The notes under the pieces are model-generated. The model searched no databases. It worked only from the letters and a program-made list of their open reading frames with translations, and was not told the origin of the DNA. A program made the translations under genes and the position numbers. A stretch of 63,713 nucleotides of DNA, the filler included, from Kipferlia bialata (taxonomy: Eukaryota): NCBI GenBank assembly GCA_003568945.1. It is 3 parts of 3 records of this genome, joined end to end, with 100 filler letters (N's around TTAATTAATTAA, not from the genome) between each part and the next. Parts side by side here need not be neighbours in the genome. Positions count along the whole stretch, not along the records: positions 24,173 to 48,241 come from BDIP01000240.1; 2 more parts are not named here. One strand, written 5' to 3'. Each line of letters opens with the position of its first letter. Positions within the stretch are counted from its first letter, which is position 1. Shown here one piece after another: positions 5,501 to 55,954 of the stretch.

Positions 5501-7705
5501 CAGTATCAGACCTTCTTAGAATACAGGCTTAGTAAGCTTACTCACAATGCAGATTGTGACGCCTTACTCCTTCGGGCAATTTGTCGACTTAAGAGCCTCC
5601 GATGGAACACCATTACACACATATGGTGAGTGTAGTCGTGAATTCAGTTTTCTAGTCAGACTGATATTCGTGTTCATGATCATACCTGATCAGGCATCCT
5701 CACATCTAGGTTGTACCACCCTCTACAACTTCAGACTGCATCTTAAGGCCCTGGGATACACGTTCTCTAAGAGCATTGACCCGCACCGTTCATGCTACCA
5801 CTATTCTGACCGTAGTACTAGGAGTGGGGAAGAGAGTAGTGACTCTGGCAGCCTAGTCAAGTACATTGTACAGGACACAGACCCTCTTAGTATTACACCT
5901 GACGTCCTGTTGCCATCGGAAACGGACCTGTCTTCTCCATCCAACACAGTGCCATCCTTGCCGCATTCTCTGTTTGTGAACCCCATTCGCATATGTAGCA
6001 ACACCCAGAGAAAGGACTTTGTATACATCTACCAGACACTGTTAGCGTCCAGCAGCACTAGGTGGGGTGACATCTTTGTTATATGGTTCAACTACCTTAC
6101 TTGTGATGATCGTCCCCCTGTGACTACTATTATTTTGCACGTCCACTTCTGTTCTATATATAGCTATTTCTCAACTCATGCAACAGATGCTGTCTTGCAG
6201 TTGTATAGCTCAAGTAGTATGTCTATTTATCATAGACTTTTGTTATAGTATAGCAAGTATAACTCTCTCCTTCTCTATATAACACTCCCACCCCAGGCAC
6301 TCCATGCAGCAGATGCTGTCTGACGTCCAATACGACACCAGACTATTGATGCATGCCACACACGGATACGGACTCCCGGCTGCTGCAGTCTACCTATTCA
6401 TATGCTCGGGACTACAGGCCACAGGGGTGGCATTGCAGGTGGATACGCATTCATACATCACCAATGCCTAGTGGGTACTCCTCACTCCATTAACCTCTAG
6501 GCATATCTGACATACACCCTATCCCTGGAGGGTATGTACCGTAACAGCCGTCGTCCCTTGTCGTCACAGCACTGTCTAGATACACTGTCCCTGGCCTACC
6601 ACCTAGCACACTCCGTGTCATCAAGCGCTCAGGGTGGTATGTATATGAATAACCACCAGGTGGGTATAAGTCCAACATGTTAGGAAGTCTGAACTGGGTT
6701 AGAAACCTTTGCAGGTTGATTCTCAAGAGTCAGGTTCTAACGCTGCAGTTACTTTACATATTCGTGGCCTGTGTGGCGCTCGGCCTCGAGACTAGTACCG
6801 GTACATATGACGGCAGGGTGTCCACACCCTCATGTCTACACAGGGGAGAGGCGCAATTGAGCCACGCAGCAGGGTGGGTATACTTCTACTCGATACGTCA
6901 TCCTAATGAAACTGTTGTTTGAGTTGACGTTCTCAGAACGTTACTCTCACATGCAGGCTCGCATTGGTAGTGGCTAAGCAGTGTGGTGTGCTCGAATACT
7001 TGCCCCTGGGGTCAAAGGATATCATAAGGGATTTGGTCACAGCTTCGTCCGGTAGAGGTGTCTGTGGCCTTGCAATTGAGGTATGGGTGGTATTTGTGTT
7101 AGCGGTTAGGAAGACTCTTACGAGCAGGTCCAAGCCATGTGTCTATGGTTCGAAAGTCTTTCTGAAGACGATAGGGCAGAAGTGCTGTTTGGAGCGCCTG
7201 AGGTGAGAAGAAGTTGTGTCTATACCTCTTTAGCAGTAAGTGTAACTCTATGACACTCTCTTCAGCGATGGCTGTCCTACTTTACCCTATCAGGTTGAAT
7301 CCACGCTCCCCTCGTGTATATCGTTCCCATACAGTGTGCTGTCCCGGGTCCAGACGGTGCTGAAGAGGGCTATCATGGCTATGGCAGTTAGTGTGCACTG
7401 TGGATCACACAGAGAGGTCCTAGGGTACGTTCTGTAATCATGTACAGATCAATTCTCCTACAAAACAGGTCAGTTAATAGCTGGTCATAGTTATCAATAC
7501 TCTAGGAATATAGGTTTCCCTGACACATAGCTGGATCGAGAGTGAGAAACAAGCGAACGAAGTACACAACCATGCCTACGGAACAGGCATAGAGTGGTTA
7601 GAGTGTGGTGGGTCATGCCGACACACATACACCGCAGCTAGATACAACCCCCTAAAGATACAACTGGCGAGACTGGCAAGGATTCTCAACCTAAAGAACC
7701 TGGTA
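2503..7705 (+). CDS. Multi-exon membrane protein with a highly degenerate C-terminal class I PDE-like domain; boundaries approximate
   Basis: N-terminal exons at 2900-3800 are hydrophobic. Exon 6501-6659 (AYLTYTLSLEGMYRNSRRPLSSQHCLDTLSLAYHL) aligns with the PDE segment TY..TLE..Y....YHN..HAADV.Q. The later IIRDLVTASS matches the 'idlvlaTD' helix. Confidence 0.45.
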
Positions 7706-10490: not shown

Positions 10491-10604
10491 ACAGGTTAAC
10501 TAGGGATACAGGGTGAAAAAGAGCAAGGTGCAATTTGTGACCGTACAACAGGTTAACTAGGGATACAGGGTGAATAAGAGCAAGGTACAATTTGTGACCG
10601 TACA
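10491..10604. repeat. Tandem direct repeat, 2 x 57 bp
   Basis: ACAGGTTAACTAGGGATACAGGGTGAA(A/T)AAGAGCAAGGT(G/A)CAATTTGTGACCGTACA at 10491-10547 and 10548-10604, with 2 mismatches. Confidence 0.95.
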
Positions 10605-10772
10605 ACCAACTGCCACCGATCTGTGTTTGTCAATAAGGGGTTAGACAGTTCGCTGCGAAGTAGCCTCTCTTCTGAGAGTGCATGGGAAAAGCAGGGTAAG
10701 AGAGTGCATTGAATGTCGAGTGAGTAACTGTACAATATTGAGACAGTGATATGTCTCCGGGCAATTCACCAG

Positions 10773-11605
10773 TCAGGAAATATTCTCATGTATGGTACTG
10801 TGTATAGTTATAGTGTGTATATAGTGAGTCTCTGCCTCTCTCTTCCTCCCCCACCCCTCATCCCCACCCCCAGTGCTTCCCCTCTGGGCAAGGTGCTGCG
10901 TGACTTAGTGCATATCTTTCTCTCTCTCTCTCTCTCTCTCCCCCCCCCCTTCTTCCCCCCCCCCCCCCCCCCCCCCCTTTCTCTTTTCCCCCCCCCCCCT
11001 TTCTCACCCAGGTGGTGCCCCAGCCGACTTTGCATTTGTGGTTGTCTTCCAGTACCTGGGTCTCTTCTGCCTCAACCTCTGGCTCCAGATGCCCTTCCTC
11101 GGTCATGCCTTCTTATCTGCCTTAGTCTATGTATGGGCCAGACGGTACCCCGACGCCAACGTGTCCTTCTTCGGGCTTTTCAAGTTCCCAGCCCCCTTCC
11201 TCCCCTACGTCAATATCCTAGTGGCCATAGTGACAGGAGCCAGTGCAAAGGTACACACTATCTAGCTTCTAGAGCGTTCTCGTTAAGTATCCCACTAGAT
11301 GTTCACGCCAGGCCGACATATTCGCCATTCTTGTTGCCCACACGTACTACTATTTGGCTGACATCTACCCCCCCACCCACATGGGAAAGGAGCCTCTCAA
11401 GCAGCCCGTGCTGCTCTGGCGGCGTCTGGTGGCGCCTATCCTGCAGATGAGACAGTCACATGCACCCAGGAACAACCTAGGGGGTGCTGCCCAGAGCCAG
11501 GTCAAGGTCAAGGCAGAGAAGCCACGGTTCACAGGGAAGCCACGGAGTGTGAGTCCCACTAGACCCCCAAGGGGGGTGAGGGTGAAGAAGGAGAAGCAGC
11601 AGTAG
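10773..11605 (+). CDS. DER1: Derlin (Der1-like ERAD membrane protein); the middle part appears missing at a poly-C tract
   Basis: Exon 11012-11250 encodes GAPADFAFVVVF...FLGHAFLSALVYVWARRYPDANVSFFGLFKFPAPFLPY and exon 11312-11605 encodes DIFAILVAHTYYYLADIYP, both typical Derlin motifs. Putative 5' mini-exons at 10773-10794 and 10874-10892 give YVLPLWAR. Confidence 0.85.
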
Positions 11606-23902: not shown

Positions 23903-24030
23903 GTGGGGTCAGTTCACTTCGTGTATCCCTGCAGTTTAGAATGTGACTCTACCCTGATGGTTACCTCTAGTTAATGGGACCAATATGGTTTATAGGTCAC
24001 ATTCTCTCTCTTTGGGTACCTGATCCCCCC

Positions 24031-24064
<34 letters not shown>

Positions 24065-24072
24065 TTTCTGTT

Positions 24073-24171
24073 NNNNNNNNNNNNNNNNNNNNNNNNNNNN
24101 NNNNNNNNNNNNNNNNTTAATTAATTAANNNNNNNNNNNNNNNNNNNNNNNNNNNNNNNNNNNNNNNNNNN
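24073..24171. other. Artificial contig join: N44-TTAATTAATTAA-N43
   Basis: Six-frame stop linker at 24117-24128 inside an N run. Confidence 0.93.
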
Positions 24172-24277
24172 NCCCCCCCAAATACGACGCCCCCCCCCCC
24201 CCCCCCCCCCCCCCTTTGCCGGTCCAGACTACCTTCCATAGTATATACTGTATATATATATATATATATACTCTAAC

Positions 24278-24734
24278 CTTAGTCTTGGCACCCCTCTCCC
24301 CTTGCTGGTACATACTCTGAGGCAGCATCAGCATATATACCTACTGTATACACAATATATATTAATATACTATTACTATGTACTTACCTTAGTCTTGGCC
24401 TCCTTCCCCCCTTGCTGGTGCATACTCTGAGGCAGCATCAGCATCCAACCTGTTGATGACAAAGAACCTATTGATGACAAAGAACGGAGTGACCATCGGG
24501 GCAGAGGGCTCATTTGGAGGTATGTGCATATATATATAGTGTTTAATTACAATACAACATAGGTATATGTGAATCATTTACAACCACTTAACCCCAGTCA
24601 GCACCTCCTACAATGCTGCTGATGACTCTGATGACTCCAACTGGGGCCCATCCCTCTGGTTCTCGCACGAGGGTATGGATATGTGTACATAATCTCTTTA
24701 CTTAGTAATTAGTAGTTTTGTTGCATACATGTGG

Positions 24735-24771
<37 letters not shown>

Positions 24772-26638
24772 ATCTTCGTGTCTACCCTAGTCTTACCCCT
24801 CAGCTGACCCCGCTCTGTTCACACTGGGAGAGGGCACATCGACATCAGGTATATAGCATATTCATTAGAAACATTGGTATATATAAGTATTTATAATGAG
24901 AGAGTATTTGGATACGTGTTGTATGTCTATTCCTTCTATATAGATTGTTCACACTGGCAGAGGGCACATCGACATCAGGTATATATAGCATATTCGTAAC
25001 TAATATTGGAATATATAGATGTATAATGAGAGAATGTGTATAGATACGTGTAGGATGTCTTTTCTATCTATATTGATTGTTCACACTGGCAGAGGGCACA
25101 TCGACATCAGGTATAGGATTCATATGCATATTTCAATATATATGTATATATATATATAGGTTAGAATCATTCGTCTAGCTATATGTCTACTGGCGCCAGG
25201 TTCGTCCTTCTCCTTCAACTGGTAGTACTATGTGTACTACTTGTATCGATATAGCTATATGACTAAACCCAGGCTCTTCCTTCTCCTTCTCCAATGATAT
25301 CTATCTCTCTCTCTCTCTCTCTATATATATATACATATATACCATATGCAGGCAATATGTAACTGACTCTAGGCTCTTCCTTCTCCTTCACCAATGACGA
25401 TGACAGCGAGGGGGTGCACTACACTAACCGGAGATACAGAATGTACGTGCATATATATCTCTCATGCATCTTTGTCCTTTGAAAGTGTTTGAATCCGTCT
25501 TGTGTCATGTTCAAGCGTTCATTACTGTGTCCTTTGTGGTGTCTCTCTCTCTCTCTCTCTCTCTTTCTCTTTCTCTCAATCGGCAGTATCCCTCTTCTGA
25601 CTCTCCCACCTGGTTACAACGGTTTATCGTATGTTTGACATTTCATTGAATGTGTATGTTTCAGAAGTACTATATGCGTCAGTGTGTACCTAACCCTCAG
25701 CCCCCTTCCTTGCAACAACACTGTGTCTGAGACCACCTACCCATACATATATATATATCAGTTATAAGTCTGACCATTAGCCCCCCACCTGGTAACAACA
25801 CTGTCTCTGAGACCACCTACCCTCTGACAGATGTGGGTGGGACAGAGACTATGTACCTGACAGGGAACGGTTGCACAGGTATACCTATATGTATGTATAG
25901 ATTGCTGTTTACTCTTTACAAGTTGACAGATTCATGTACCTGACAGGGAACGGGTGCAGGTTACTATATATGTGTATAGTACAGATACATATTTACAGAG
26001 CTTCTCTCTTGTTGTATCCTCTCTCCCTCACCCTAGGTGTCTATGCCACTGCTGGCGTCGATGTCACTGACCTTGGCACCAGGGTGGGCACAGTGTTTGT
26101 GTCATACCTCGGTGCAACATATGCCACAGACGTTGCATTCGAGATTGGGTCATGCGCTAGGCTGCTAGTTGATGACAGGTGTGTATCTATACATGTATAT
26201 ATCTTAAATTAGTACATATCTTCTCTATACGAGGTTGGGTCCTGCGCCAGACTGATAGTTGACGATAGGTATGCGTGCGTCTGTGTTTATGCCTCCCTAC
26301 TCTCTCTCTAACCCGTAGGCACATCGACTCCGTCATCTCTTTCTCTCTCTATCCCCCTCTCTCTCTCACAATATGTATGTATATCTCTGACCCCTAGAGA
26401 CACCGACTCCGTCATCACTGATATGACCAATACCTCTCTCTCTATATATGTGTATATACAAATATGTATATATGTGTGTAATCCTAACTCACCTCTAGGG
26501 ATATTGACTCCGTCACCGTTGATGTGACCAATGCATCAGTCCCTCTCTCTACCTCTATGTATACAGACACCTACCTTACCCCTAGAGACATCGACTCTGT
26601 CATCATCGATCTCACCATTGCCTCTTATTCTCTCTCAT

Positions 26639-26684
<46 letters not shown>

Positions 26685-28604
26685 CCTCCCTTACCCCTAG
26701 AGACATCGACTCTGTCATCATCGACCTCACCAATGCCTCTGGGGGTGACGCTGCCTCTGCGTCTCTAGTCCTCGAGGCACTCTTTGCACCCAACGTGGCA
26801 CCCCTGCTCGTGGGGGGGACCAGTGTCACAGCCAGGTATTGCTGTTACTGAATGTCATATATGTATGGTTATAGTGTTATACCGACGTGGCACCCCTGCA
26901 AGGGAGAGGGACTAGTGTATCAACTAGGCACGTCCAGGATATATAGATAGTACATGTAGTAGAGTACGTATGGACCTAATACCTAATACCTAATGTGTTG
27001 TGAGAGGGACCACCGTCACAACTACGTATGCTAATGTGAATGGTATATAATCTAGAACGGTGATTGTATTCACTAACTGTAGAAACATCCAGGGTGGCTA
27101 TGACATGTTTAGTATCGTGTATAATGTGTGTGAGTATTTAGTATTCGTGTGTGTGAATATGTATGTTTCTATATCTACTTACCCCAGGAACATCCAGTGT
27201 GGCAATGACCTCTCCTTCACCTTTGGCACAGAGGAGTACCAGAGGTCACTGTACATCAGCAGTGCTGGCGTGTCATCCTGCATGGGTGTGTATCTGTGTG
27301 TATACATAATGTATGAATATACAGAGATATAGTGATTGTGAGCAGTATAGACCACTGCGCCTTAATGTTAATTAACACTCATCTTCGTGTACAGGTTCCT
27401 CTATTTTGCCCAGTTACCTCACCCTCAGTCTCCTCTGACGATGGCTCAGCCCTCTCTCAGAACAATACCCTTGTGTACGGGTCAGGGGACGTTGCATGGT
27501 GAGATAGTGTATATGTATAGTGCATTCATTCTGACGATATCAGCCTCGGACCTCTTTCTACTCGATGAACACTACGATATATGCGTATATACTGGAAGAG
27601 AGTATGTAATTTTATACCTGCCTATCTCAGCAGTGATGTCTCGGACCCCTCCTTCTCTATATACACTACTTTCTCTCTCTATATATATATGCTACTCATT
27701 ACTAGTGTAGATAATAGTCTTATCCTACGTACTTACCCCAGGGGTGATGTCTCGGACCCTTCCAGCTACTCTCTAGGATTCCCCCAGATGCCCAACTCCC
27801 TTGGAAAGGGTAAGTGCTGGAATCAAGTGTTAAGTAATCTTTTCATACATGTTTAGGGTAATGTGTTTACCTCATGGTTGTATTTAATACGTTTACCCCA
27901 GTTGGCGATCTCGACTTCTCGTGGGTGTACGAGTGTATATGTATTTGTATATATATGTAGTGTGTGTATTATGTATATATATATATATAAATACATACAA
28001 ATGTGTCTTATCCCAGTTGGCGATCTCGACTTCTCCTGGGTGTACAGCCGCAAGGAGTTCGAGGAGTTCCCTCTGGTAAGTGGAGACTTTGCATATATTG
28101 TCTCGGTGTACATATTCTTCTAGTACCACCAGATACTCAAAATAATGTATGTTTCAGTGTATTCACATTGGCATGTTCTTTTAACTAGCAATTCTCTATC
28201 CCTCACCCTTAGGTCATGGACTTCCCTGAGATATACCCCTCCGATGACTTCTGGAACACTATCATGACGGAGGACGCCTCCGAAGGTAAGATTATCACTA
28301 CTATAAATACATTTACATACAGCGTATTCTATAATATACCCCTCCGATGACTTCTGGAACATTATCATGACAGACGACGCATCCGAAGGTACAGCATGCG
28401 TAGTATTAGTGTTGTTCATAGTCTATTTGTGTTTGTACTCTGCACTGACTTACGGGACCACTCTGACAAAGGACTCAATGCATCTTAGTGAGTGCTATAT
28501 ATTTGTGTATATGTAAGTGAGTACTGTATATATGTATAATAGTCTCCCCACCCGTAATTAAAATTGTATATACCTATATTGGAGTGTATCTATCTATATC
28601 TATG

Positions 28605-28660
<56 letters not shown>

Positions 28661-30506
28661 TGTGTATGTATGTATGTATTACTCTCCCTCCCACCCCCAG
28701 ATGACATTGAGTATGCCAATGCCCTTGCCGACCTAGCCTCTCTCACTAGGGTGGTCAGAATGCCAACACTAGGGGTCCAGGGATCAGGTACCAAAATGTG
28801 TATGAGTACACTAACTATACCTATACTGTATATGAACGTATGTTTATATTGATATAGTGTGGTCAGAATGCCAACACTCGGGGTCCAGGGGTCAGGTATA
28901 CATATAGATATATATAGACATACATATATTCATTTGGTAATACATGGAATAGCTAGGATTCCACCGGGTCAGGTAGGGACATGTGTGTAAGTTCGACAGT
29001 CTTCATTCGTATATATTGATCTCTAACACCCAGATGGCACTGAGAACCTCATGATGAACAGTGGACTTCTCAACATCCAGATTGGATCAGGTGGGGAAAA
29101 TACAGTGTCTATATACAGTCAAGTAGTCGTGTTCACACCAGGTGAGCTGGAGCTTGGTGCACTGAGCCGGATGGAGCCCAATCAGATCACAATCTTGACC
29201 AGGTATTGATATGGTATATAGTATTAATGAGTATCTATCCAGCCAGATCACAGTGTTGACCAGGTATAAATATGGATTATAGTGGTTTTGACTCTTTCAG
29301 TACCAAGGAGATATATGTTATCTTGGAGTTCATCTCACCCCAGTTCCTCATGTGCCGATGGGTGCTCCGCATTTGTACTGGGCGTTCAGGAGCAGGTAGT
29401 GTTTCATACTATACATGGAAATATACATGTTGTGACTCTTGGTCTGGATTTACTAACATATCCCTCTCTTCCTCTCTCTCTCTCCCTCTCACCCTACAGC
29501 GTCTAGGCCATTGATGTTGTCACCATTGGTGTTATATACTTGTTTAGTTACATATATAGAGCGTGACCTCACCCGTAGCGTCTAGGCCACGTTGTCACCA
29601 TCGGTTTGGATGGCCAGACCACAGCTGGTGCCAAGGCATCTGTCCTGGAAAGTGTTGGATACTCAAAGTCTCTCACCAACGGTACGAGGATTGATGTGTA
29701 AGAGTAGATGCACATATACATGCACATACTATATATATGTCTCATTCACTGGCTCCCTCAATGGTATAGTGAATATATATGGTAAAGTATTTGAGTGTAT
29801 AAGAGTGTAATCTCTATATCTGTTAGAACCAATTGGTGTATTTACATATTTCGCTGACTCCAGGTATGTACACTGTGCCCCGTGCCGTCACCGCTCCCAT
29901 CGCCAACTACGAGGTACAGTTATGTGTATATTGTATATATATGTATTGTAGTTCCTTTGTGGATCGCGTAGCTATTCTGACCCCTAGGCCTTTGCCGACT
30001 GGCAGAGTGAGACCGACACCCCTCCCTCCATGGTTGGATCCACCCCCTCATTCGCACCCAAGGCAGAGAATGGTACGGTCTCTCTCTCTTTTTCTGAGAT
30101 ACTATTTCTAGGTTCATATATGTTCATCTTTATACTAGTTTCGTCTAAAGTCGGCATTCTTCTTCTCTTCTTGTCTATACCCCAACGCGCTCTTTCAATG
30201 TAGTGTGTCCCATTTCCCATATTACCTATGTGTCTTTGTACCTCACCGTATCTTGATTATTTGACTTATTATAGTTTACTCATATCTCCATTAACTATTA
30301 TTTACCGCAGTGATACCACTGTTTGCATCCAGTGTGGCCACTAACCTCGTACTATTTACGTGTATTATACGTATATTATACTTATATATATCTTCTTATT
30401 AGTTATGTATATTATTTGTGTAGTACTCAGATATATATATAGTTATTAACCCCAGTGATACTCAAGAAGGACATCCAGTGTGGGCACTGTCTCTCTCTCT
30501 CTCTCC

Positions 30507-30545
<39 letters not shown>

Positions 30546-32860
30546 GTCTCGGTTCCTATCCTTACCCCAGTGATCCTTAAGAAGGACATCCAGTGTGGCC
30601 CCAGTTGGCCAACCAACGGTGTGGACTCTGATACCCCCAGTGCTGGGGGACAGATACACGCCACGGCAGTGCTGTACAGCGAGGTAACCGTGTTCCTACC
30701 TCTCCCAATACATCATTCTGATTCCATTTTAATACTAGTAGTACTATTGTGAATATCTTGTAAATATTCCTTACTCCAGGCCAGCCTGACCTCCTCCCCC
30801 CTCCCATCCAACATGGTCACTGGGGCAGAGAGGCTCATCCAGAACAGCGGGGAGGCAACTAGTGAGTGTACGTATGTATAGAATGTATAGATAGTATATA
30901 CTGATCATATATACTGGTACTGATGCTGATGATTATCCGGAACAGCGGAGAGGCATCTAGTGAGTGTACGTATGTATGGTGTATATATAGATATATAGTC
31001 ACTGTTACTGATACTGAGAGATCCCTCTTCAGAGTGTACGTCACTATTTCAATTCATCTGTGAGATTATACTCCTGAGCGTAGCTATAATACTCCAGACA
31101 CCAATGCCGTCAGACGCATCTTCTACGGCTTTATAAGTGTATATATATATATATATATAGTTATATACGGATACTATAGATGAGATGTCTACTGATCTTC
31201 AGACACCAATGCCGTCAGACGCATCTTCTACAACGCATATGCATATATATGTATATATAGTAATATACAGATACTAGAAATGAGTTGTCTTATACAATGT
31301 ACAATACAATATCTATAGTATTCTAATCTCCAGACACCAATGCCGTCCGACGCATCTTCTACAACGCAGACCTCGACAGCTCTGTCACTGTAGACACCAC
31401 CTCTGACAGTCTGGGTCTCCCATTCACATGCGAGGTATTACAATTATACCAGTATAGTAATAGTATAATGAATATATATATATATATATACATATATATG
31501 CACTGTCACTATAGACACCACCTCTGACAGTCTGGGTCTCCCATTCACTTGCGAGGTTTTATAATAGTTCTATTGTAGTAACAGTATAATGAATATATAT
31601 ATATATACTGTCACTGTAGACACCACCTCTGACAGTCTGGGTCTCCCATTCACTTGCGAGGTAATGCAATGACACATTTTTCAATTTTCATACTACCCTA
31701 CACAGTAACATAGTATTTTCCAGACATGGTAGGCATTTATATGCGAAATAGATCCAAATCATTGCCATTATGCTTCTCACCTCCTTAAACGCCCCAATAC
31801 TTCTCCTCTCACCCCTCCAGCCCGCTGAGGGCGAGACCTCCTACACCGTCAACCTGTGGAGCTGCAGCCCTGGCGAGGGTCTGCGTCTGATGGGCCCCAG
31901 GGCCACCTGTGACTACGAGCCCCAGTCGGTGTGTGCCAACATAGTGCCCACAAAGATGGAGGTATTGTGGCACCTCTCTTGTCTCTGTACTCCAGGATCT
32001 CATCGCTATTTCAACTCTTACTGTAGGTACTCCTCCTGCCTCCTTGCCAATATCAATGTCCTCTCCCTCTCTTCTTATTCTTCTCTCTCTCTCCATCTAT
32101 ATGTTAATATTAATAGTATGTTAATATATTCTTACTGTAGGTCTTCTCCTCCTACCTCCTTGCCAATGTCAGTGTCCTCTATACTCTCTCCTTCTATCTC
32201 TATCTATATGTATATATATCCTCTTATCTCAGGTATATATTCATCCTACCTCCTTGCCAATGTCAATGTCCTCTCTCTCTCTCTCTCTCGGTCTATCTCT
32301 CTGCCCCCTTTAACAGTAGGTCTACTCTTCCTACCTCCTTGCCAACCTCAATGTCCTGGTAGGCATGGCAGCTGTTGCCCTCCTTGGCCTCACCCTCCTG
32401 TCCATGCTGGTGATGGGTGTTACCAAGGCACTCAGGGTATGTAGATGTACTTAGCATATATATTATGTATTATATTGTATTCACCCTGCTGTCCATGCTG
32501 GTGATGGGGGTCACAAAGGCTCTCAGGGTAAGTATATATACTTTCCATTTGTATAATTGTATTGTTGTATACATTTACCCTCCTGTCCATGCTGGCCATG
32601 GGTGTCACCAAGGCACTTAAGGTACCTAGATATATACACACNNNNNNNNNNNNNNNNNNNNNNNNNNNNNNNNNNNNNNNNNAGATATATACACACATGT
32701 ATATAGTGTATCCTCTCTTGTGATATACCCATGCTGGTGATGGGGTTCACCAAGGCACTCAGGGTACGGATATGTATGATAGCATATAATTACTATTATA
32801 TATGTTGTATTCACTTGTGTTATCCATGATAGTGATGGGGGTCAGCAAGGCATTCAGAGC
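24278..32860 (+). repeat. Array of intronic exon-end echo copies (more than 30) in the S41-like gene
   Basis: Examples: donor echoes 24945-24980 and 25077-25112; four acceptor echoes 26315-26620; acceptor echoes 31098 and 31203; donor echoes 31503-31555 and 31607-31660; four donor echoes 32480-32860. Confidence 0.92.
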
Positions 32861-32980
32861 TCGGGAAGATAATTGTATATGTATATATATTTACTCCTGA
32901 TTGTTTTACTAACCCATTAGCGCAAGCGCTCCTGGAATGACGCAGGAAAGGTGGCTCTGGACCTGAGCATCGTTGTATAG
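24393..32980 (+). CDS. Type I membrane protein with a peptidase S41-like domain; more than 20 exons, 5'-truncated
   Basis: IDSVIIDLTNASGG (S41 IIDLRxNxGG motif) and EPNQITILTSSSCADGCSAF...RLGHVVTIG (compare the eukaryotic S41 motif IvILTDG.CASTC..F). C-terminal TM LNVLVGMAAVALLGLTLLSMLVMGV, then RKRSW...IVV*. Confidence 0.7.
32642..32682. other. Assembly gap (41 N)
   Basis: N run inside an echo-containing intron. Confidence 0.98.
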
Positions 32981-33315
32981 ATAGAGAGGGGGAGAGAGAG
33001 AGAGAGAGAGAGAGAGATTCCCATACTTCCGAATGAATCTCGAGTATTCTCCATGAACATTGGTTTTCCGGACGTCTCCCCTAGAGGTGTCAGAAAGATG
33101 ATTTTTGTGTCGTTGCATCTGCATTATGTATGTGTAATAGACTGTTTAGTGTGATCTCTTAAGCTTAGTTTCCTGACCTGATATAGTGATGAGAGATACA
33201 GATTTGAGCTATCAGGTCTTTGAGTGAGGGTATCTCTAGTCCCTCCCAATTGCGGGTTCGTAGTGCTGTTTGCAACACCACCTCATCCTACTCATGCCCG
33301 TCAGGCACACATACT

Positions 33316-35228
33316 ATGCAGCAACCTGTGCCAGTGATGTACACCACTCCCCTCCCTACCCAGAGACCCCCTCCTAAGGAGATGTGGATAGTACGTATCA
33401 CACATACACGCCTATCTATATATATCACAACACCAAGTGATACCCGCAAACATGCACTGATTATCAGACATTTAGCGATATCTATATATGGAGTAGAACA
33501 CATACTGCTGTGTTTTGAACTGACTCTTGTAGGTCAATGTCATCTGGTTCTTCAGTATATAGTTGAATATAGTAATGTATATAGTTACATACACGCCCAT
33601 GAATACATATGTTAATATACTCATTGTATTCTCATTGTATTGACTCCTTCAGGCCTATGTCATCTGGTTCCTCTTTGGCACACCTTAAGTAGATGACGTA
33701 CATATCTTCTATTACTGTCACAACACAGCACACATGTATTGACTTCCAGGCCTATGTCATCTGGTTCTTCTTTGGCACATTTGGCTTCCACAGACACTAC
33801 ATTGCATGGCCCGGTGTGTCTGTACCTGGCACTACACTGACTGTCCTCGCTGTAGCCAGCTGTATCCTCAAGTATGGTGCGTAAGAACATTAGTTTTAGA
33901 ATTGTCAATACTATATTAGTCTAAGATTATATTATTATATTATAATGACTATTTGTTTGTTATTCTGTGGCCAGTTGCATCCTCAAGTATGGTACGGTGC
34001 AGAGACATTCTTAGTTGTCTTCTCTAGGCACTCACCTACACTACATAAGGTGTGTCCTCAAGTATGGTGCGTAATAATTCATACACTCTATAGGAGACTC
34101 CTATTATGAGTCAACTTGCTATTAGCAAGTTGCTATACACTATTAGTGGTTGAATCTGTGGGTAGTTGTCTCCTCAAGTATTGTGCCTTGTGTACACAGT
34201 TAGGTGGTGTATATCAGTATACGTATACTATACGACGAACACATTGCGTTGGGTGATGCTCAATTACGGTGCGTATTACGCAGCGTAATTGTGATATGTT
34301 ATCTCTTCTTGTGTGACCCTCTGCTGCACTATACCTGGCTGGAAACTCTAGTGAGGAGGCTAATAGACAGTAGTTTGCCTTTTACTTCGTTAAGATAATC
34401 GTGCCTCACTCACTGTCAGTCTTCTACCGAATCCGACTGGCTCTGTACCTTGGTACAGGAATCCAGAGCGCCATAGGTAACACTAAGTTCTCCACACATA
34501 CATATGGCTGGATGCACGTATGTCACATACAGTTTATGTTGTCAATGACAATACACAGACAGGCTCTTCCTCAGCAAAGACAAACATCATCGCTATTCAC
34601 TCTAGGCATATGGTGGCTCATTGATGCCTGTCTCATTCCAACACTCGTGAACGCCGCCAACTTACAGGTAATATCACTCAGTGTTCAGACCAAATAGAAT
34701 TTAATTGAATAGTAGAATTACGTATAGATTGTTGTTTCCCACAACAAGAACCTGAGTGTGACATGTATATGGGAACCATTGGGTCTTTGATAGATAGTAT
34801 CTTCTTTTGCCTAGGAAAGATCTTGACCCCCAGACACAGGGACCTCCAGTCAAGACCGCCATTGTCGGTGGTGTTGCAACGGTAAGTGCGGGATCATTCG
34901 TATGACAATATATGTGACTTACCCCAAGGACTACCCCTCCTACCCACCCACCATGGGACAGCAGCCCCCACGCAACGCTGTTCTCAACTCTCAGCCCATG
35001 CCGCAGCCCCAGCCACCTGCTAACCCATATGCCCCTGCCACCGGACCTAACCCCAATGTTACTGCTAACCCATACCCTAGTGCACAGCCCAATCACTACC
35101 ACCCTCAACAAGAGCAGTACCCTGCTACTGAGGGACCGTTTGTGCAGCCTGTCACAGGATATGCCCCTGCTCCTATGCCTGTGGTACCAACATATGACGC
35201 TCCACCTCCAGCCAATGGTATGCAGTAG
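33316..35228 (+). CDS. TM2-domain membrane protein with a Pro/Tyr-rich C-terminal tail
   Basis: KEMWI|AYVIWFFFGTFGFHRHY (TM2 motif AY.LW.F.G.FG.HRFY) and GIWWLIDACLIPTLV. Last exon is DYPSYPP...NGMQ*. Confidence 0.82.
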
Positions 35229-38600: not shown

Positions 38601-41184
38601 CGTGCTACAGAGAATGATGCGTCCTGCGTCGTGTCCATACTCCCCATCTCACAATGCTCTAGACCCAGATGCACATCGTAAGACATTCATGAGCATGTGG
38701 GCTCTGGAGGAGCGGGAGAAGCCACCTAGGCTGCCAGCGGACATGTTTAGGAGGTCTCCAGTTGTAACGTGTGACCATTGCGTTGACCAGCTGCTGATCA
38801 AGTACCACAAAATGTCAGGTAGGTTGTATGCTACATTATACCTGTATGTTCCAATATCCATAATGTACATCTCTCACCTATATGTATAGATTACTAATGA
38901 CAGTGAACAAGAAGATACGAGCCTCGCTTGTGAACGCTGCAACGAATGAGAACTTCGATGCAGCTCTGTTTGACAAGCAGCTAGGAGGCTTTGGATTCGG
39001 GTGAGACTCAATGATACACTCCACCACATTAAGCGAATCACGTTTAGCTAGTCAACGACTACTGCAAAGTGAAGAATTGACTATACGCACATCTAACGTC
39101 AGATGGTTGTATATCTTTGTCCACATCCAGCACTATGTGTTGAACCCTGGCCCAATGCGAGTGTCACTAAGGGACTTGGTTAGGCTGTTGTTCACTATTT
39201 ACAGGTAAGTGATTTATAGTTGTATTGAAATTTTTATCTCTTTCTTTTATTTTCATTCACTGGTAACACAACTTGGAAATTGAACCACGGTCTCTGAGTG
39301 TCTCTCAGTAAGACTCTATCTCTGTCAACACAACTGCGATTCGACGCCTGTGATTGAGGCACCTTCCGTACCCCTTACCCTAGTCTGCACCGCAACAACC
39401 CCTTTCATAACGCCATTCACTCCTTGGACACGCTCCAGATATCTCTTGTGATGATGTACAGTATAGAGAAGTGTCCGGGAGGCACTGTGTGGATGCCGTC
39501 AGTGCTACGGGCACTCACTATGCTATCAGCAGTGTGTCTCAACATAGACCATCCTGGTCTGTCTAAGGTATCATACACTGGTACTAATATTGATCACGAC
39601 ACTGATACTATTGATGATCCCGATCCTGATCCTGATACTGGTTCTGAATCAGAACTTCTGAGCCTGACGTTGATACAGTCTCTATCAACTTGATACTGAC
39701 ACTGATGCAAGGACTACCTAGTGGGTACTGATAACCCTGTGGCCACAGCCTATGGCAGAGAACGTCCTATCCAAATGCAGGTCAGTCTTCACAGAGGATG
39801 CATACTTCACTGCGGAAGACTCTTTGCCCATGAACGGTCTCAACATGTACCTCATATATGTGATCATGTCTCACTCTAGGCATCAACCCTCGCTGCAGCT
39901 GTGTTCCGCGGCTGCAACATACTCCCACGGTCAACTGTGGAGATCAACCTCGTCAGAGACCTGATTGTGTCTACGAGCTGTCATAGTGCCAGGGACACTC
40001 TCTTCCAGCTACGTAGACTCACTGCTCTGCCATATACTCCAGCTCCGTGGAAGGAGAATGAGCTAGTCTCTGCTCTGGTAGATAGAGAGAATGGGCTAGG
40101 TATACTATACATATTCATATGTATGTGTATTTGCACTATGTAATCTATATTCTGTAACAGCACTGACTACAGGACATGTGCAGTACTTGACTGCAAGATC
40201 CGTGCTCATGGTGGCATCTATGGGCTGTATGGCAAGAGAGTGGCCCATAGCCGAGGTAGGTGATCTTCGCAGTAAAGCAAGCGAGATTCTTCTTTAGTCT
40301 CTAAATCCATTGCTTGTGCTTCCTCTAACCACTGGTGTTTGGCATGCAAAGACTGAGATATATTCATTGCTGGAACTAACCACAGGTCTTTGGCAGACTG
40401 AGGATGAGGGAGGAGTATGCCTCTGGTGCACATGAGGCAGATGCAGGGCTGATAGTGCCTCCATGTAGGTACGAGACCCAACGCCTCTCTCTACTAGAGT
40501 TGCAGGAGTGTATACGAGCCTTACTCCAAGTATGAACTTTCGCTGTAACCTTCAGGATGCTGCAGATGAACCACAGCACCGAGCTCGATGCAGCCATGTA
40601 CCAGGCAGAGTATGTGAGGGAGAAGGTATATATATATGGTATAAATACATTATAGAAAGTAACACATATTGATATATAATACAATATAATATACAATAAT
40701 GTGTATAATAGTATATAGTAATGTATAATGATGTATGCCATGTACCAGGCAGAGTACATGAGGGAGAAGGTGCTGCCCCATGTGAATATAGTATATATAG
40801 TATATATAGTATATATATATTATATAGTGAACATGAGGGAGAAGGTGCTGATACTATAATACATATTGATATATAATACATTATAGTATTTTATAATGTA
40901 TATAATATATAATGTATATGAGGGAGAAGGTGCCCCATGTCAAGAAATACACCCACCACATATATATAGTATATATATGCAGCGCAAATTTATTAATAAT
41001 ATACAATATATATAGATTTCATTAATAGGAAATATATATTAATACGAAGGTGCTGCCCCATGTCAAGACATACACCCACCACATGCGGAGACTGGGAATT
41101 AGGGGTGCAGAGCTGGTGGGGGAGAGGCTGACAGAGAGGGCAGTTAGGAACAGGGAGAGGTGGTTGCATTGTAGTAGCCAATAG
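35651..41184 (+). CDS. Multi-TM protein with a C-terminal class I cyclic-nucleotide PDE domain, likely catalytically dead; start approximate
   Basis: N-terminal TM ORF 35803-36954. Later motifs NNPFHNAIHSLDTLQ, SAVCLNIDHPG, LVRDLIVSTS, VLMVASMGCMAREW, EEYASGAHEADAGL and RNRERW follow PDEase_I order. Confidence 0.75.
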
Positions 41185-46717: not shown

Positions 46718-47586
46718 TCACTCCTTGATGCTGTTACTCCGCTTCCTGTGCTTCCGTCTCTTCTCCTTGACAGGCCCAGAGGGGGGGGCGCTAGGGGGGG
46801 CGCTGGGAGGAGCGGTAGGCTTGCTAGGGGGAGCAGTAGGCTTGCTGGGGGGAGCAGTAGGCTTGCTGGGGGGAGCGGTAGGCTTGCTAGGGGGAGCGGT
46901 AGGCTTGCTAGGGGGAGCGGTAGGCTTGCTGGGGGGAGCGGTAGGCTTGCTGGGGGGAGCGGTAGGCTTGCTAGGGGGAGCAGTAGGCTTGCTAGGGGGA
47001 GCAGTAGGCTTGCTAGGGGGAGCGGTAGGCTTGCTAGGGGGAGCGGTAGGCTTGCTAGGGGGAGCAGTAGGCTTGGTTGATGCGGTGGATTCAGTCTGTG
47101 CTTCTTCAGTGAGACCTGACTCCGTCTCCGTCATGTCGCCCATGAGTATCTGGTCGATGAGGGCCTGCGTCTCGGCCTCCTTCTCTGATACCTGGTCTGA
47201 TACCTGGTCTGGGGTGGTGTCATGTGAGTCATGTGAGGATGGTAACTGTACATCCCAGGCGGCATCGGCAGCCGAAGCAGCCTGTCTCTCTGTCTCCCTC
47301 GCTGCCTCCTCTAGGGCCAGTTGACGATCCCTCTCTCTCTCCCTCTCCCTCTCCCTCTCTCTCTCCCTCTCTCTCTCCTCCTCCAGTCTCACTTCCTTCT
47401 CAACCTCAGCCTGGATCTCTCTCTGCCTCTCTGCCTCTCTCTGCCTCTCTGCCTCTCTTTCCTCCTGCTCTCTCATCCACTCCGCCTCGGCCTCTCTTTC
47501 TCTCTCTCTCTCCTCCTTCTCTCTCTCTGCATCTATAGCATCCTCTCCCTGCCTATCAGCAGCATCGGCCTCTCCTCGGTACATGC
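46718..47586 (-). CDS. Terminal exon of a hypothetical coiled-coil/Pro-rich protein; upstream exons not present
   Basis: Acceptor CTCACTTTCAG at about 47587-47597, then an open frame to TGA. E/R-rich, followed by KPTAPPS repeats. Confidence 0.65.
46802..47074 (-). repeat. Coding minisatellite, 13 x 21 bp (KPTAPPS)
   Basis: Unit AAGCCTAC(C/T)GCTCCCCC(C/T)AGC; variation is confined to third codon positions. Confidence 0.95.
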
Positions 47587-47799: not shown

Positions 47800-48135
47800 G
47801 TCACCGCCGGTGCCGACAGTGACATGCAGAGCATCCCAGAGGGGCTGGACCAGAGATACATCGGTATGTATAGAAATTATGATATGTATATGTATAACAC
47901 CATTGCATATACAAATACTAATATATGATATGTATATAGTTATTTGTGTATGTATACTCATACCAGTTGTGCACCAGAAGATGTGTTCATTGGTGTATAT
48001 TTACACTCACATATATATATGTATATATGTATATACATACCCTATACATACTCTAACCCCAGTTGTGCACCAGAAGATGCGTCTGGCTGTGTTCATTGCA
48101 TCTGTGCAGACAGCACTGGACCAGATCAGAGACAA
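47800..48135 (+). CDS. Two internal exons of a hypothetical gene (fragment)
   Basis: VTAGADSDMQSIPEGLDQRYI|VVHQKMRLAVFIASVQTALDQIRDK with canonical splice sites, and echoes at about 47963 and 48193. Confidence 0.55.
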
Positions 48136-48241
48136 GGTATATTATATATATATATATATACTGTATATATGTATAGTGTAGTTGTATATATATGCATCGG
48201 TGCAGACAGCACTGGACCAGATCAGAGACAAGGTATATTAT

Positions 48242-48341
48242 NNNNNNNNNNNNNNNNNNNNNNNNNNNNNNNNNNNNNNNNNNNNTTAATTAATTAANNN
48301 NNNNNNNNNNNNNNNNNNNNNNNNNNNNNNNNNNNNNNNNN
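48242..48341. other. Artificial contig join: N44-TTAATTAATTAA-N44
   Basis: Six-frame stop linker at 48286-48297 inside an N run. Confidence 0.93.
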
Positions 48342-49475: not shown

Positions 49476-52400
49476 ATGTCACTGGGTGGCCTTATCGTGT
49501 CGCTGGCTGTCCTGCTGGCTCTACTGGGAGGCTCGGTGGCACTGGGAGCGGACAGGGACTGTACACAGGACGACCTTGTCCAGGTATGTGCCACAGTAAT
49601 GATGGAGTCGATCATGTCATGTCTGTTCAGGTTGCAGTATGTTATATACATCCCACGTGGAGTACAGAGCCATCGTGGGTTATATATGAATGTATACTGG
49701 ACTCTCTGTTACCAGAACCAAGTACGCAGTTGTATTGATTCTCCATACACCTCTACCCTCAGTATGTCACTGCATGTGAGGAGGGCCAGCAGTACATCAT
49801 CTACGCCATCCCCTCTGCCGCAGAGTGCGTGGAGGGGGAAGGCTTTGTGGTGCCTCCCCCGGTTGGGGTGGAGTGTGGTATGAGGTATCAGTGTTACGTT
49901 GTCATATAGCTAGGGACCCAGACTGACCCTGACACCAGGTGTGACCCAGGTACGTACATTGACACGAGGGAGGGGGACCTGGCCGCAGAGGCTGTGTGCA
50001 CCCCTTGTGAGGGAGACGAGACGTCCATTGGGGGGGGTGATGTCTATGACTTCACCAAGCTGACCTCACTGCCACTGGGCTTCAACACACTCTGCTCCCC
50101 AGGTATCGACTGTATATATATGCAAATGCCACACCATGGGTCTGGTCCCTCTCTCTCCCCCTCTCTCCCCCTCTCTGTTACTTCCTTACTTGGTCTCCAC
50201 TCCATGTCCCTTACCCTAGATGAGACCCTCCCCGAGGGTGCCTCAGGGTGTGGGGAGGGCTGGTCTGTCCAGGACGGGTCTCTCGAGTGCACAGGCACAG
50301 GTATCAGTGTCAGCGCGTGTCTATGCTCTGTATCATACCCTACGTATGGTACTGTCCCCGTCACGCACTCACCCCAGGCCTTGGCTACACCTCCTCCATC
50401 TACTGGACTGCTCTCTTCCTGGTCAATGGAGAGCTCAGGGTGGACTTCCGCACCCTGGCAACGCCCTTGCTGGACCTTCTGGAGGTGCGTGGATTCCCTG
50501 GTGCTGGTTCTCCCTCTCTCTCTCTCTGTGTCCCTTCTGACCCCAGGTCCGTATCAACGGCGTCCTACTCGACAGCCTGTCCAGCGGGGCAGACGTCGGA
50601 GACAGCATAGAGGAGGTATCCACAGACACTATATACACAATGTGTATTACACATGTCCCCGCCCTCCACCCACCCCAGGTGGACTGGACCCGTGCCACCT
50701 ACCCCGTGCCCCCTGGCAAGCACCGCATCGGTCTGTCCTATGCGAATGAGTCAGTGGGGGACCTGCCAGAGCACGACGTCCAGATCAGACGCATAGAGAC
50801 ATACGGCACAGAGGCCCTGCCGGATAGATGCGGGCTGTGCCCCGCAGGCACATCCCCAGACCTAGCCCCCGAGACAGGGCCCGAGGAGGGGGTGGTCTAC
50901 ACGGGTAGCTGCACCCTCTGTCCCAGAGACACCTACTCACTCACGGGGGCTGAGTGTGTGCCGTGTGGAGATGACCAGTACGCACCGGTCGGGTCCAAGC
51001 AGTGCCTAGACAGGTATGTGGGTGTATGTTTATGCTATAGCGTGTGGGTTCGTACAATGATGCAGCTATTGTATCATTTCCCCACCATCAATATAACTCC
51101 CACCCCTAGGCTGGTGCCCTGCACCTCTGATGACTTCACCCCTGTGTATGGGGCATGTACTGAGGGACCAGTGGCATATGTGGGAGAGAGGCACGTGGAG
51201 GGCTTCGTCCCAGTGTTCCCTGTTGTGTGTGATGTCGATGCATACACACACCCTGCCCTGCCCTCAGTGCCATGTTCACTGTGTGAGGGCACACACGTAT
51301 ACGACAGAGAGGCCGGGGAGTGCGTCGAGTGTGAGGCAGGTGGGTCAACCAGGAGTATACCTGAAATGTTTTTTTACACGGTGTGAGCCCATTTCTCTAT
51401 ACCACCTTCGTTCGCTCACCACCCAGGCCAGTTTGGCAACCAGGATACCCACCTGTGCGAGTGGTGTCTGCCAGGCACTGCGGCTATGCCCCTAGTAGCC
51501 TACGAGGCCCTGCCCGCCTTCCCGGACACCTTCACGTCCCAGGTCTCTGACGAGGATGACCTAGGATGGTACATGGGGGGGGAGGGAGAGATTGTGTGTG
51601 GACCGATCCACAGGTGGGGGTTGGTGTGGATGTATCCCTGTTACTCACTGTTGTCTCTTAATACTATACTATAACCCCCCTCCCCTCCCTAATGATGCAG
51701 GAGTGGTCAGTATGCCTCCCTTAGCATCGATGTCCCAGCTGGGTCCACCTCTGTGGCCATCGACATAGACACAAGGTGCCCGGTGGGGGACCCAGACGTG
51801 GTGGCCCAGTGCAATGTCAACCTGGGTGGGTGCTGATGATATGGATGTGGATTTGGATGTGGGTTGATGACCATACCCCCCCCCCCCCCCTCCCCTCACC
51901 GCCAGGTGTCTCTGTACTGTTGAGTGGCCTCCAGCCCATAGCTGTGGTGGCTGCCAATGCCGTCTCCACCGTGACCACCCCTGTGTCCACCAAGAACAGA
52001 CACACCCTGACAGTCAGGGTGGCCAAGATCGGCTCAGATATGCAGGGTACGGTGGGGGCGGGTATCGGCTCTCTATACTCTTATGCTCTTCTGACACAGG
52101 TACCGATGGAGACAAGATACTCGATATGGTCGTGTCCGTTGGAAAGGTGCGTTGCCGATGGATATGGTGTTGTATGGTATAATATAGTGTAATATTCCCT
52201 GGCCTGTGTAAGCCTTTGATATCTACCCCCCAGGTTCTGATATATGGTGGTCAGAGTGTGGAGTGGCCTGGGGACCGGTGCACCACCTGTCTGCCAGGGA
52301 CGTACTCCTACGTAGATGCCACCCTTGAGTACATGGCACAGCACGCACCCTATACAGTGACCGAGATTGGTGACACCTCTGTCTCTGCCACCCAAACGGG

Positions 52401-55901: not shown

Positions 55902-55954
<53 letters not shown>

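Follow-up and report, generated by a model that had tools for sequence, protein, structure and literature searches.

Most introns of a gene of Kipferlia bialata, a free-living protist, contain serial partial copies of the ends of their own flanking exons, which raises the question of what these copies are and how they came to lie there. The gene lies in a window of 63,713 nucleotides (the whole stretch of DNA analysed), whose contigs are joined by linkers that are filler and not biological (N44-12 nt-N44, at 24073-24172 and 48242-48341). It has 25 exons on the plus strand (24393-32981) and an open frame of more than 720 amino acids, with the 5' end missing at the contig start. Its product, with a single predicted membrane pass, belongs to a K. 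bialata protein family and aligns collinearly with two hypothetical proteins of this species, P0002 (142/330 identical) and P0013 (112/303). Exons 1 to 8 lie at 24393-24519, 24598-24672, 24804-24848, 25373-25442, 25781-25878, 26037-26178, 26701-26835 and 27188-27285, exons 9 to 16 at 27429-27498, 27742-27809, 28017-28075, 28213-28285, 28701-28787, 29034-29090, 29142-29202 and 29344-29395, and exons 17 to 25 at 29579-29681, 29864-29913, 29988-30072, 30571-30683, 30780-30867, 31334-31434, 31821-31961, 32320-32436 and 32921 to the stop. Exon lengths agree with the record offsets of spliced X2 contigs, to which the starts and ends of exons 9 and 21 were adjusted.

Anatomy of the exon-end copies

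We use the word echo for a partial copy of a neighbouring exon end, together with its splice site, within an intron. An anchored scan of the host gene found 33 echoes (15 donor-side, 18 acceptor-side) in 16 of the 24 complete introns, with one further acceptor echo in the partial intron before exon 1 (34 echoes, 19 of them acceptor, in all). An earlier note on this DNA had claimed 1-4 copies of 20-55 nt in most introns; the majority stands, and the ranges become 1-5 per intron and 11-56 nt, at 72-100% identity. The arrangement that it described, exon end plus GT after the donor and branch point-AG plus exon start before the acceptor, was borne out: donor copies lay solely downstream of their exon and acceptor copies solely upstream, at a spacing of about 100 nt, and non-cognate exon ends gave 0/576 donor and 1/576 acceptor pairs (1 match in 1152 pairs), wrong-side controls no donor and no acceptor match, and the inverted control one. 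Unanchored local matches stopped no more than 3 nt from the exon end in 13 of 16 instances, and 18 of 19 started no further than this from the exon start. GT was retained in 13 of the 15 donor echoes and was GC in the other two; AG was retained in 18/19 acceptor echoes, and 4/19 begin with GT. All copies were partial, with no whole-exon copy bearing its own acceptor and donor (wrong-side matches 0), and the exon part was at most 56 nt at all 15 boundaries of exons of at least 87 nt (P about 1e-5 vs uniform breakpoints).

The echoes of the host gene are all on the plus strand. An acceptor echo of exon 1 (24283-24334, 52 nt, 90% identical) is bridged by an X1 contig. Intron 3 carries donor echoes of exon 3 (24946, 25078) and acceptor echoes of exon 4 (25200, 25273) within 24946-25297, the nearest spacer being 80% identical to its partner. 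Exon 5 has acceptor echoes at 25602 (without AG) and 25701 and a donor echo at 25933 with a 2-nt deletion (25602-25959 overall). Within intron 6 (26227-26625), an exon-6 donor echo (26227) with five synonymous and three amino-acid changes is followed by four exon-7 acceptor echoes (26319, 26398, 26499, 26586), with branch motifs that differ where the motif is degenerate; the exon-7 start had been reported five times, and five are found, at these positions and at 26701, as degenerate copies of which only the last two match the motif exactly. Intron 7 (26882-27104) contains a GC donor echo (26882), a weaker donor echo near 27000 and an exon-8 acceptor echo (27083); echo 26882 shows a weak 8/10 match running into exon 8. 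Acceptor echoes of exons 10 (27631) and 11 (27902) occupy 27631-27930, donor echoes of exons 12 (28334), 13 (28855) and 15 (29244) and an exon-17 acceptor echo (29500) occupy 28334-29510, and exon-20 acceptor echoes (30456, and a weaker one near 30311), an exon-21 donor echo (30935) and exon-22 acceptor echoes (31098, 31203) occupy 30311-31237. Two exon-22 donor echoes of 56 and 53 nt (31500-31660, 95% and 98% identical) follow, the far one with a flank unrelated to that of the working donor; all three reported occurrences of this exon end were recovered, the first at 31382, that at 31503 with one extra mismatch and the third at 31608 rather than 31607. Exon 24 has three acceptor echoes cut at one common exon position (32027-32272, inside the exact X1 contig 31893-32616) and four donor echoes (32481, 32577, 32729, 32823; 32481-32858), with a 41-N gap inside the donor array (32642-32682); the nearest of the four differs from the exon by five synonymous changes only.

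Introns were longer the more echoes they held (Spearman 0.88), by about 91 nt for each one, with means of 112 vs 345 nt, in keeping with the claim that the copies lengthen introns, and the repeat period was narrow (61-142 nt). The copies lie at splice boundaries far more often than in other places: 45 of the 49 non-low-complexity local repeats in the host gene involve an exon or echo, three of the remaining four being part of the weaker exon-20 echo; the filter removed 364 of 457 repeats window-wide as low-complexity. Far echoes were shorter than or equal to near ones in 7 of 8 arrays, and echoes of one array often have a common cut point.

Physical reality and splicing of the echoes

Eight X1 contigs, among those listed for this DNA run, match the window with no other letters and bridge 20 of the 34 echo truncation junctions by at least 31 nt, X1 being one sample and possibly the same from which the window was assembled. 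The matching pieces are unbranched and up to 1609 nt long, one exact contig containing the whole of 25586-26603, and their depths of 360-438, a per-contig figure and not a copy number, resemble those of unrelated contigs of the run. An assembly artefact is therefore unlikely, and the copies can be taken as physical.

For 13 of the 16 introns with echoes (all but introns 6, 23 and 24, which they do not cover) the spliced X2 contigs agree with use of the first donor and last acceptor; these are assembled contigs, from which rare splice forms are dropped by assembly. Echoes are skipped in assembled transcripts wherever those cover them, as had been proposed in calling them decoys, yet by weight matrix 7/15 donor and 5/19 acceptor echo sites are as strong as the site used. 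For 31 of the 33 echo sites, splicing there is predicted to lead to a stop.

Echoes in other genes and a candidate young intron

Clear echoes were present in five other genes of the window and most genes were without them, so that the suggestion of a pervasive genome feature is borne out only in part, echoes being clustered in some genes. An alpha/beta-hydrolase-like gene (56-1138, minus strand; Pfam match below cut-off) has donor and acceptor echoes in three introns, and a TM2-like gene (33533-34185, plus strand; Pfam match below cut-off) has two acceptor and at least three donor echoes around one exon. On the plus strand, an acceptor and a donor echo surround exon 48063-48136 (47963-48241, adjoining the contig end), and the copy in a donor echo at 58681-58723 takes in about 22 nt of the intron start. 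A tandem duplication free of any boundary, with a 57-nt unit, lies at 10491-10606.

A predicted intron of another gene (40626-41049, plus strand) contains the spliced junction in triplicate (33+17, 11+6 and 16+35 nt), the copies being separated by very AT-rich spacers. It has an AG|GT junction and an AAG acceptor, and the frame is open across the predicted splice. Its sequence suggests a candidate young intron, and intron birth by the echo process. The 24 introns of the host gene contain no spliced-junction copy (0/24), so there the process enlarges existing introns.

Divergence between echoes and exons

For the nearest echo at each of 21 boundaries we counted 37 changes at 198 synonymous sites and 28 at 530 non-synonymous sites, a pN/pS of 0.283 (P=0.015 vs 0.5, P=4e-7 vs 1), where 0.5 is the floor, derived in this analysis, for a cis copy decaying neutrally beside a constrained exon. 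The synonymous excess relative to 0.5 was modest (context-matched P 0.012-0.091), and it was not replicated in the five other echo genes (18 matches, ratio 0.49, P=0.54 vs 0.5; P=0.044 vs 1). Across all 34 echoes 68 of 117 differences were synonymous, with no stops, including none among the 47 unique non-synonymous changes. Set against random changes matched by type, the amino-acid changes were the more conservative (BLOSUM 0.13 vs -0.62, P=0.0014); changes private to one echo were also conservative (P=0.024), with a weak synonymous excess (15/38 vs 10.8 expected, P=0.08), and those common to several echoes, where the bias was strongest, comprised 11 synonymous and 2 others.

The exon part of the echoes was 90.5% identical, and the 30-nt flank 67% identical vs 64% for unrelated introns in gapped alignments, with 5/33 flanks above the control's 95th percentile; even for echoes 93-98% identical over 29-55 nt the flanks were no nearer than unrelated introns. 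Spacers could be aligned in 10 of 21 units, at 76% identity, and could not in 11, and the ten aligned units held 10 non-synonymous changes vs about 32 expected at half the spacer rate. Splice signals persist in the echoes (branch/acceptor score 4.1 bits, vs 5.4 for working sites and -8.5 for other intronic AG), the flanking intron being at least 24% diverged.

What is new here, as judged from these alignments, is that echoes differ from the exon in the way that working alleles would. Because the differences are mostly at silent positions, the echoes are likely once-working versions of the boundary. The earlier reading had passed over both this protein-level selection signature and the diverged, intact splice signals, which plain copying and decay fits poorly. 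It had also missed the junction copies at 40626-41049.

Distant paralogues agree with the echo residue at 3/20 and 4/20 differing codons (both at two of them) and with the exon at 5/20 and 1/20. Close homologous copies in X1 and X2 have a patchy likeness, with four tracts of at least 90% and loose ends far less alike, a pattern that we read as probable paralogue exchange. None of the homologous copies seen matches an echo, and the exon-24 echoes side with the host gene and not with paralogue letters. Microhomology or filler at the joins is at most putative: read by eye, several junction contexts merge into CT or TA repeats, without formal excess.

Origin of the echoes

Our preferred account, held tentatively and at a little short of an even chance, is that echoes are physical partial duplicates of about 100 nt, likely former working boundaries, produced probably by one-ended repair that took a diverged allele or paralogue as its template and filtered by splicing. 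A broken end would invade the diverged copy within the conserved exon, be extended past the splice site into the intron of that copy, and be rejoined by microhomology, putatively stranding the old exon end in the intron. Events would survive solely if the exon-joined copy keeps its splice site, that is the first donor or last acceptor, a choice such as exon definition would make and one under which mis-spliced forms would carry stops. Repeated events would shift older echoes outward, and echo and exon would have diverged mostly while both were under selection. Metamonads have neither Ku nor DNA-PKcs and are believed to depend on homologous repair (PMC8516963). Common cut points are not expected from independent breaks without later unequal exchange, and at 40626, where the copied junction is intronless, the spacers flanking the copies are AT-rich, so that spacers need not derive from a homologous intron. 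The boundary-centred mechanism first proposed is not established, since the survival of untargeted duplications would leave the same polarity and the duplication at 10491-10606 touches no boundary.

A serious, somewhat less probable competitor is that simple tandem duplications in cis, each some 100 nt long (from a sister template, flap mis-processing or a staggered break with filler, as proposed sources) survived only across splice boundaries, that AT-rich spacers turn over fast, and that allelic or paralogous conversion later overwrote the exon to give the synonymous bias. Homology along the length of 10/21 spacers, the narrow period, the shared cut points, the spacers at 40626 and the ratio of 0.49 in other genes speak for it, as do an 18-nt in-frame duplication in exon 1 and the 57-nt one at 10491, which represent untargeted duplication. 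The bias among shared changes (11 vs 2) is likewise expected from later conversion of the working exon alone. It requires, however, that within one silent unit AT-rich DNA evolve at 2-3 times the rate of exon-derived DNA, a rate that would account for the spacer contrast, and it is at odds with the conservative private changes, the lack of stops and the near-identical echoes flanked by sequence like that of unrelated introns.

It is unlikely that echoes are retained by a present function, either in minor alternative or stepwise splicing or as silent back-up cassettes recombining into the exon end (deletion between repeats would restore one boundary). Protein-like constraint, intact signals, echo sites that often score like used ones and the predicted membership of the host in a surface-membrane family would suit such a role, but X2 contigs fit inner sites only, echoes are half-exons without the other splice site whose use would nearly always lead to a stop, recursion needs the GT start that few acceptor echoes have, and far echoes are seldom the longer ones. 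Slightly more doubtful is a splicing-coupled process, such as an R-loop or splicing intermediate, that targets breaks or copying to exon boundaries. The concentration of complex repeats at exon ends and the short exon parts agree with it, and the junction copies at 40626 could derive from spliced RNA; against this, the same polarity is expected from survival under splicing, the low-complexity repeats of introns had been filtered out, host introns lack junction copies, and a cis RNA template would not yield allele-like divergence. Stacked haplotypes in the assembly are very improbable, for despite the allele-like echoes, a period close to short-read length, several arrays adjoining gaps or contig ends and the possible identity of X1 with the source sample, a separate contig set of reads is exact across the bridged junctions at ordinary depth, and copies that begin mid-exon are not a product of overlap assembly.

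Comparison with known systems

The closest known system is the human F7 IVS7, where a 37-bp minisatellite spans the boundary of exon 7 and intron 7 (PMC1557585). In both, the unit crosses the boundary and downstream pseudo-donors are competent yet silent; F7 uses the most upstream donor, and in the host gene the covering contigs fit the site nearest the exon. As described, F7 is one locus with donor-side copies identical at the site, whereas the host gene has 21 boundaries on both sides, units diverged in their intron part and an allele-like bias in the exon part; its units are not alike head-to-tail over their whole length. In human segmental-duplication genes, internal tandem repeats are known at exon-intron boundaries; these show enrichment in paralogue families and can give rise to introns (PMC2812944). 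Like echoes they sit at boundaries and modify introns; unlike echoes they are minisatellite expansions (27 intron cases), and a selection signature or donor/acceptor polarity is not described in that paper's account of them. Gao and Lynch (2009) reportedly addressed intron gain by tandem genomic duplication. In the Rogers model, reviewed in PMC3443670, an intron is gained when a genomic AGGT segment is duplicated in tandem. The predicted intron at 40626-41049 resembles this model in that AG|GT junction copies would supply the donor and an exon-derived AAG acceptor, and differs in its serial copies and its AT-rich spacers that are not exon-derived.

Daphnia neointrons are ascribed to staggered double-strand breaks and NHEJ (PMC4202315). 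There, as proposed here, the repair of breaks gives rise to direct repeats and makes AT-rich introns longer, but those repeats are 4-12 bp long and lie at the new intron's opposite end, and the Kipferlia lineage is reported to lack NHEJ. We rejected a Daphnia-type origin on the 11-56-nt copies lying on the same side as their source, repeats of 4-10 bp being below the scan threshold. Tandem exon duplication with mutually exclusive splicing yields whole exons with both splice sites, present in mRNA; such duplicates share with echoes exon-like copies with synonymous bias inside introns, and were rejected since echoes are half-exons absent from contigs covering them. One-sided invasion, or aborted synthesis-dependent strand annealing (SDSA), leaves one homologous and one non-homologous junction with the template copied beside the resident, and would match the echoes; Belmaaza and Chartrand (1994) are said to have treated it. 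To our knowledge it has been described for engineered breaks and is not known to make introns grow recurrently in nature. SDSA is treated in PMC4888836. Introners or mobile introns were rejected, as unrelated intron ends are 64% identical in gapped 30-nt alignments and an echo matches its own exon alone, and recursive splicing or stwintrons on the few GT starts.

Significance

Through the echoes, one route by which introns grow, and possibly are born, can be seen and counted. Kipferlia has 125,000 introns, and the studied parasites of its clade almost none. We consider it possible, if rather doubtful, that in a eukaryote without NHEJ exon ends are replaced again and again through one-ended homologous repair templated by diverged alleles or paralogues, with the old ends left buried in the intron, which would make introns an ordered fossil record of earlier working alleles, and that the same process of about 100 nt, acting at AG|GT within exons, gives rise to introns and may account for part of this number. 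The genome paper (PMC5874029), in which Kipferlia is the one intron-rich fornicate, favours ancestral introns over lineage-specific gain. The spliceosomal protein set of Kipferlia is reported as reduced (87/174; PMC6679479). Dozens of natural competing splice sites flanking short exons make splice-site choice directly testable, and gene predictors may mis-annotate echo-bearing genes. If echoes are former alleles, one genome would keep a time-ordered record of protein and splice-signal variation.

Copies of exon ends within introns of the main gene

The main gene of this free-living fornicate (24393-32981, plus strand), whose 5' end is cut by the contig start, was modelled with 25 exons and an open frame of more than 720 amino acids, its predicted product ending in a hydrophobic stretch and a short tail. 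The model is supported by two K. bialata hypothetical proteins, P0002 and P0013, which align collinearly with exons 12-24 (142/330 and 112/303 residues identical). No Pfam family passed the cut-off for four main-gene exons or for either paralogue, word-index protein searches with exons 23 and 7 gave no match, and no paralogue of the gene was found within the window. Exon 1 contains an in-frame 18-nt tandem duplication (24452-24487, plus strand; six codons repeated), and one contig of X2, a set in which introns are skipped, carries all 127 nt of the exon, duplication included.

An anchored scan of this gene revealed 15 donor-side and 18 acceptor-side echoes, that is, partial intronic copies of an adjacent exon end with its splice site, in 16 of 24 introns, with one more before exon 1 (length 11-56 nt, identity 72-100%). 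Non-cognate exon ends gave 1 match in 1152 pairs, and there were no wrong-side copies and one inverted copy; the copying of exon boundaries reported in the earlier note is real and non-random. When alignments were not anchored, 31 of 35 matches came within 3 nt of a splice site. Splice sites were spaced at a median of 100 nt (range 61-142), intron length rose by about 91 nt per echo, and multiples of three were not in excess among the unit periods (12/34). The splice dinucleotides were kept, with GT in 13 of 15 donor echoes and AG in 18 of 19 acceptor echoes. Among local repeats of the main gene that were not of low complexity, 45/49 involved an exon or echo and three more represented a weak exon-20 echo, although intron-only duplications are under-counted here because the complexity filter discarded 364 of 457 repeats across the window; output of a general repeat finder was dominated by microsatellites.

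Distribution across the window

Clear echoes were present in five further genes, of which one is hydrolase-like (56-1138, minus strand) and one TM2-like (33.5-34.2 kb); the other three lie at 40.6, 48.0 and 58.7 kb. Within the main gene, a model-free acceptor scan, which misses weak acceptors, found echoes at 8 of 34 motif hits; in the rest of the window it found them at 7 of 209, three of these being judged genuine. Echoes are thus recurrent but clustered by gene, and the earlier notion of a pervasive genome feature is supported in part.

Introns of echo-rich genes (24001-33000) are TA-dense, with 26-46 TATA per kb, compared to 4-10 in echo-poor genes (49500-57000), a difference that could be cause or consequence. 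Weak single acceptor-type repeats occur in two genes (6177-6321 and 40325-40395, plus strand). Intron-only duplication occurs too, as in the hydrolase-like gene, where a repeat of about 45 nt internal to an intron is present in three copies (1340-1460, minus strand). A 57-nt tandem duplication at no recognised splice site (10491-10606) lies upstream of a derlin gene, one exon of which (11011-11250) shares 100% identity with a protein named 'derlin [Kipferlia bialata]', and a coding tandem repeat of seven residues in about 14 copies is located near an ORF end (46780-47080, minus strand). Positions 24073-24172 and 48242-48341 are artificial linkers between the three contigs; contig ends or gaps adjoin several echo arrays, and echoes may fragment the assembly and hence be under-counted.

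In the predicted intron at 40626-41049 (plus strand), which has an atypical AAG acceptor, the spliced junction is present in three copies, set among spacers that are very AT-rich. We regard this intron as a candidate young one; its make-up points to a putative birth at an AG|GT site and to filler or fast AT-rich turnover.

Physical continuity and splicing of echo introns

Eight listed contigs of a DNA run, X1, matched the window without any other letter and bridged 20 of the 34 echo truncation junctions; as X1 may be the source sample, this is a check on the assembly and neither a second isolate nor a check on how many near-identical units there are. Contigs of X2, taken as spliced RNA solely because they skip introns, had record offsets equal to summed exon lengths of 288, 300, 135, 90 and 254, with two exon limits adjusted to this fit and two sums assuming the contig end position. 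Several bins had no X2 cover, 32226-33100 among them, and absence was not used as evidence. The contigs fitted use of the first donor and last acceptor in 13 of 16 echo introns, which upholds to that extent the proposal that the spliceosome skips echoes as decoys, but introns 6, 23 and 24 fall outside this count and such contigs drop rare splice forms. With 7/15 donor and 5/19 acceptor echoes scoring no lower than the site in use, splice-site choice is likely decided by position and not by strength alone. Use of an echo site would bring a stop in 31/33 cases. Programmed deletion between repeats was also considered, and no such joint was present among the joints listed.

Selection signature in the echoes

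In a copy silent from birth, non-synonymous sites would change at the neutral rate and synonymous sites in both lineages, from which we derived an expected pN/pS of at least 0.5. Across all 34 echoes, five of them trimmed by 2-8 nt at the splice end owing to indels, 68/117 differences were synonymous, none was a stop and pN/pS was 0.25-0.30, with amino-acid changes being conservative (P=0.0014). Taking one echo per boundary gave 0.283 (P=0.015 against 0.5), and context-matched tests of synonymous excess gave P values of 0.012-0.091. The exon part of echoes was 90.5% identical, compared to 67% for the adjacent 30 nt (one echo, whose flank contained N, was left out) and 64% for unrelated introns. 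Spacers were alignable in 10/21 units, at 76% identity, and these units showed 10 non-synonymous changes where about 32 were expected. Branch/acceptor motifs scored 4.1 bits in echoes, 5.4 in working sites and -8.5 at other AGs, their variation in echoes falling at degenerate positions, and at two codons the echo's residue was found in both distant paralogues. By these sequence comparisons, the profile of echo against exon appears to be that of two working versions of one gene. This protein-level signature and the near-working splice motifs had not been seen in the earlier note, whose observation is more informative than originally read.

Several results count against that reading. In the five other echo genes, pN/pS over 18 hits was 0.49, some hits entering on both sides, and synonymous bias in the main gene was strongest in changes common to several echoes (11 to 2). 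Changes private to one echo showed a weak synonymous excess (15/38 versus 10.8, P=0.08), yet were conservative (P=0.024). No template for the echoes was identified, those of exon 24 siding with the main gene and not with the listed paralogue letters. Echoes of one array share cut points, which requires either that unequal exchange followed or that echoes were themselves copied. The AT-rich spacers around the junction copies at 40626-41049 weigh on the same side.

Discussion

We tentatively favour, at slightly less than even confidence, an origin of echoes by one-ended repair from a diverged allele or paralogue, with survivors filtered by splicing. A break would arise near an exon end, and one broken end would invade the diverged copy within the conserved exon; about 100 nt would be copied across the splice site, and microhomology would serve for the rejoining. 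The copy now joined to the exon would work, leaving the old exon end stranded in the intron. As splicing would remove such a scar only in the polarity observed, selection would concentrate survivors at boundaries. In the accessible text of PMC8516963, metamonads are described as being without Ku and DNA-PKcs, and a dependence on homologous repair is presumed. X1 and X2 also contain further copies that are at least 90% alike at exons 25781-25879, 26708-26829, 28702-28788 and 31827-31963, with the ends of adjoining exons far less alike, and this patchy likeness suggests exchange (gene conversion) between paralogues.

The main rival, cis duplication with fast spacer turnover and later conversion of the working exon, is a serious though lesser possibility. 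Retention of echoes by a present function is improbable, and copying targeted by splicing slightly more so. An artefact such as stacked haplotypes is barely credible, given the identity of separate X1 contigs across those 20 truncation junctions, even if X1 is possibly the source sample itself.

Judged by the accessible parts of the sources, main-gene echoes work like the boundary minisatellite of human F7 IVS7 (PMC1557585), from which they differ in that their units are not alike over the whole length; repeats at the exon boundaries of duplicated human genes (PMC2812944), intron gain by tandem duplication (PMC3443670) and Daphnia introns from break repair (PMC4202315) are related. The literature covered, from which subscription journals were largely missing, held no account of gene-wide, two-sided, selection-marked echoes, nor of echoes in Kipferlia, and the main text of the K. 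bialata genome paper (PMC5874029), in its accessible part, gave 0 hits for 'duplicat'.

Exon parts of echoes never exceed 56 nt, a maximum that may represent a length scale or the loss of longer repeats by collapse. On a rather doubtful but conceivable reading, the introns of K. bialata would hold an ordered record of past alleles, left by a process that may also create introns.
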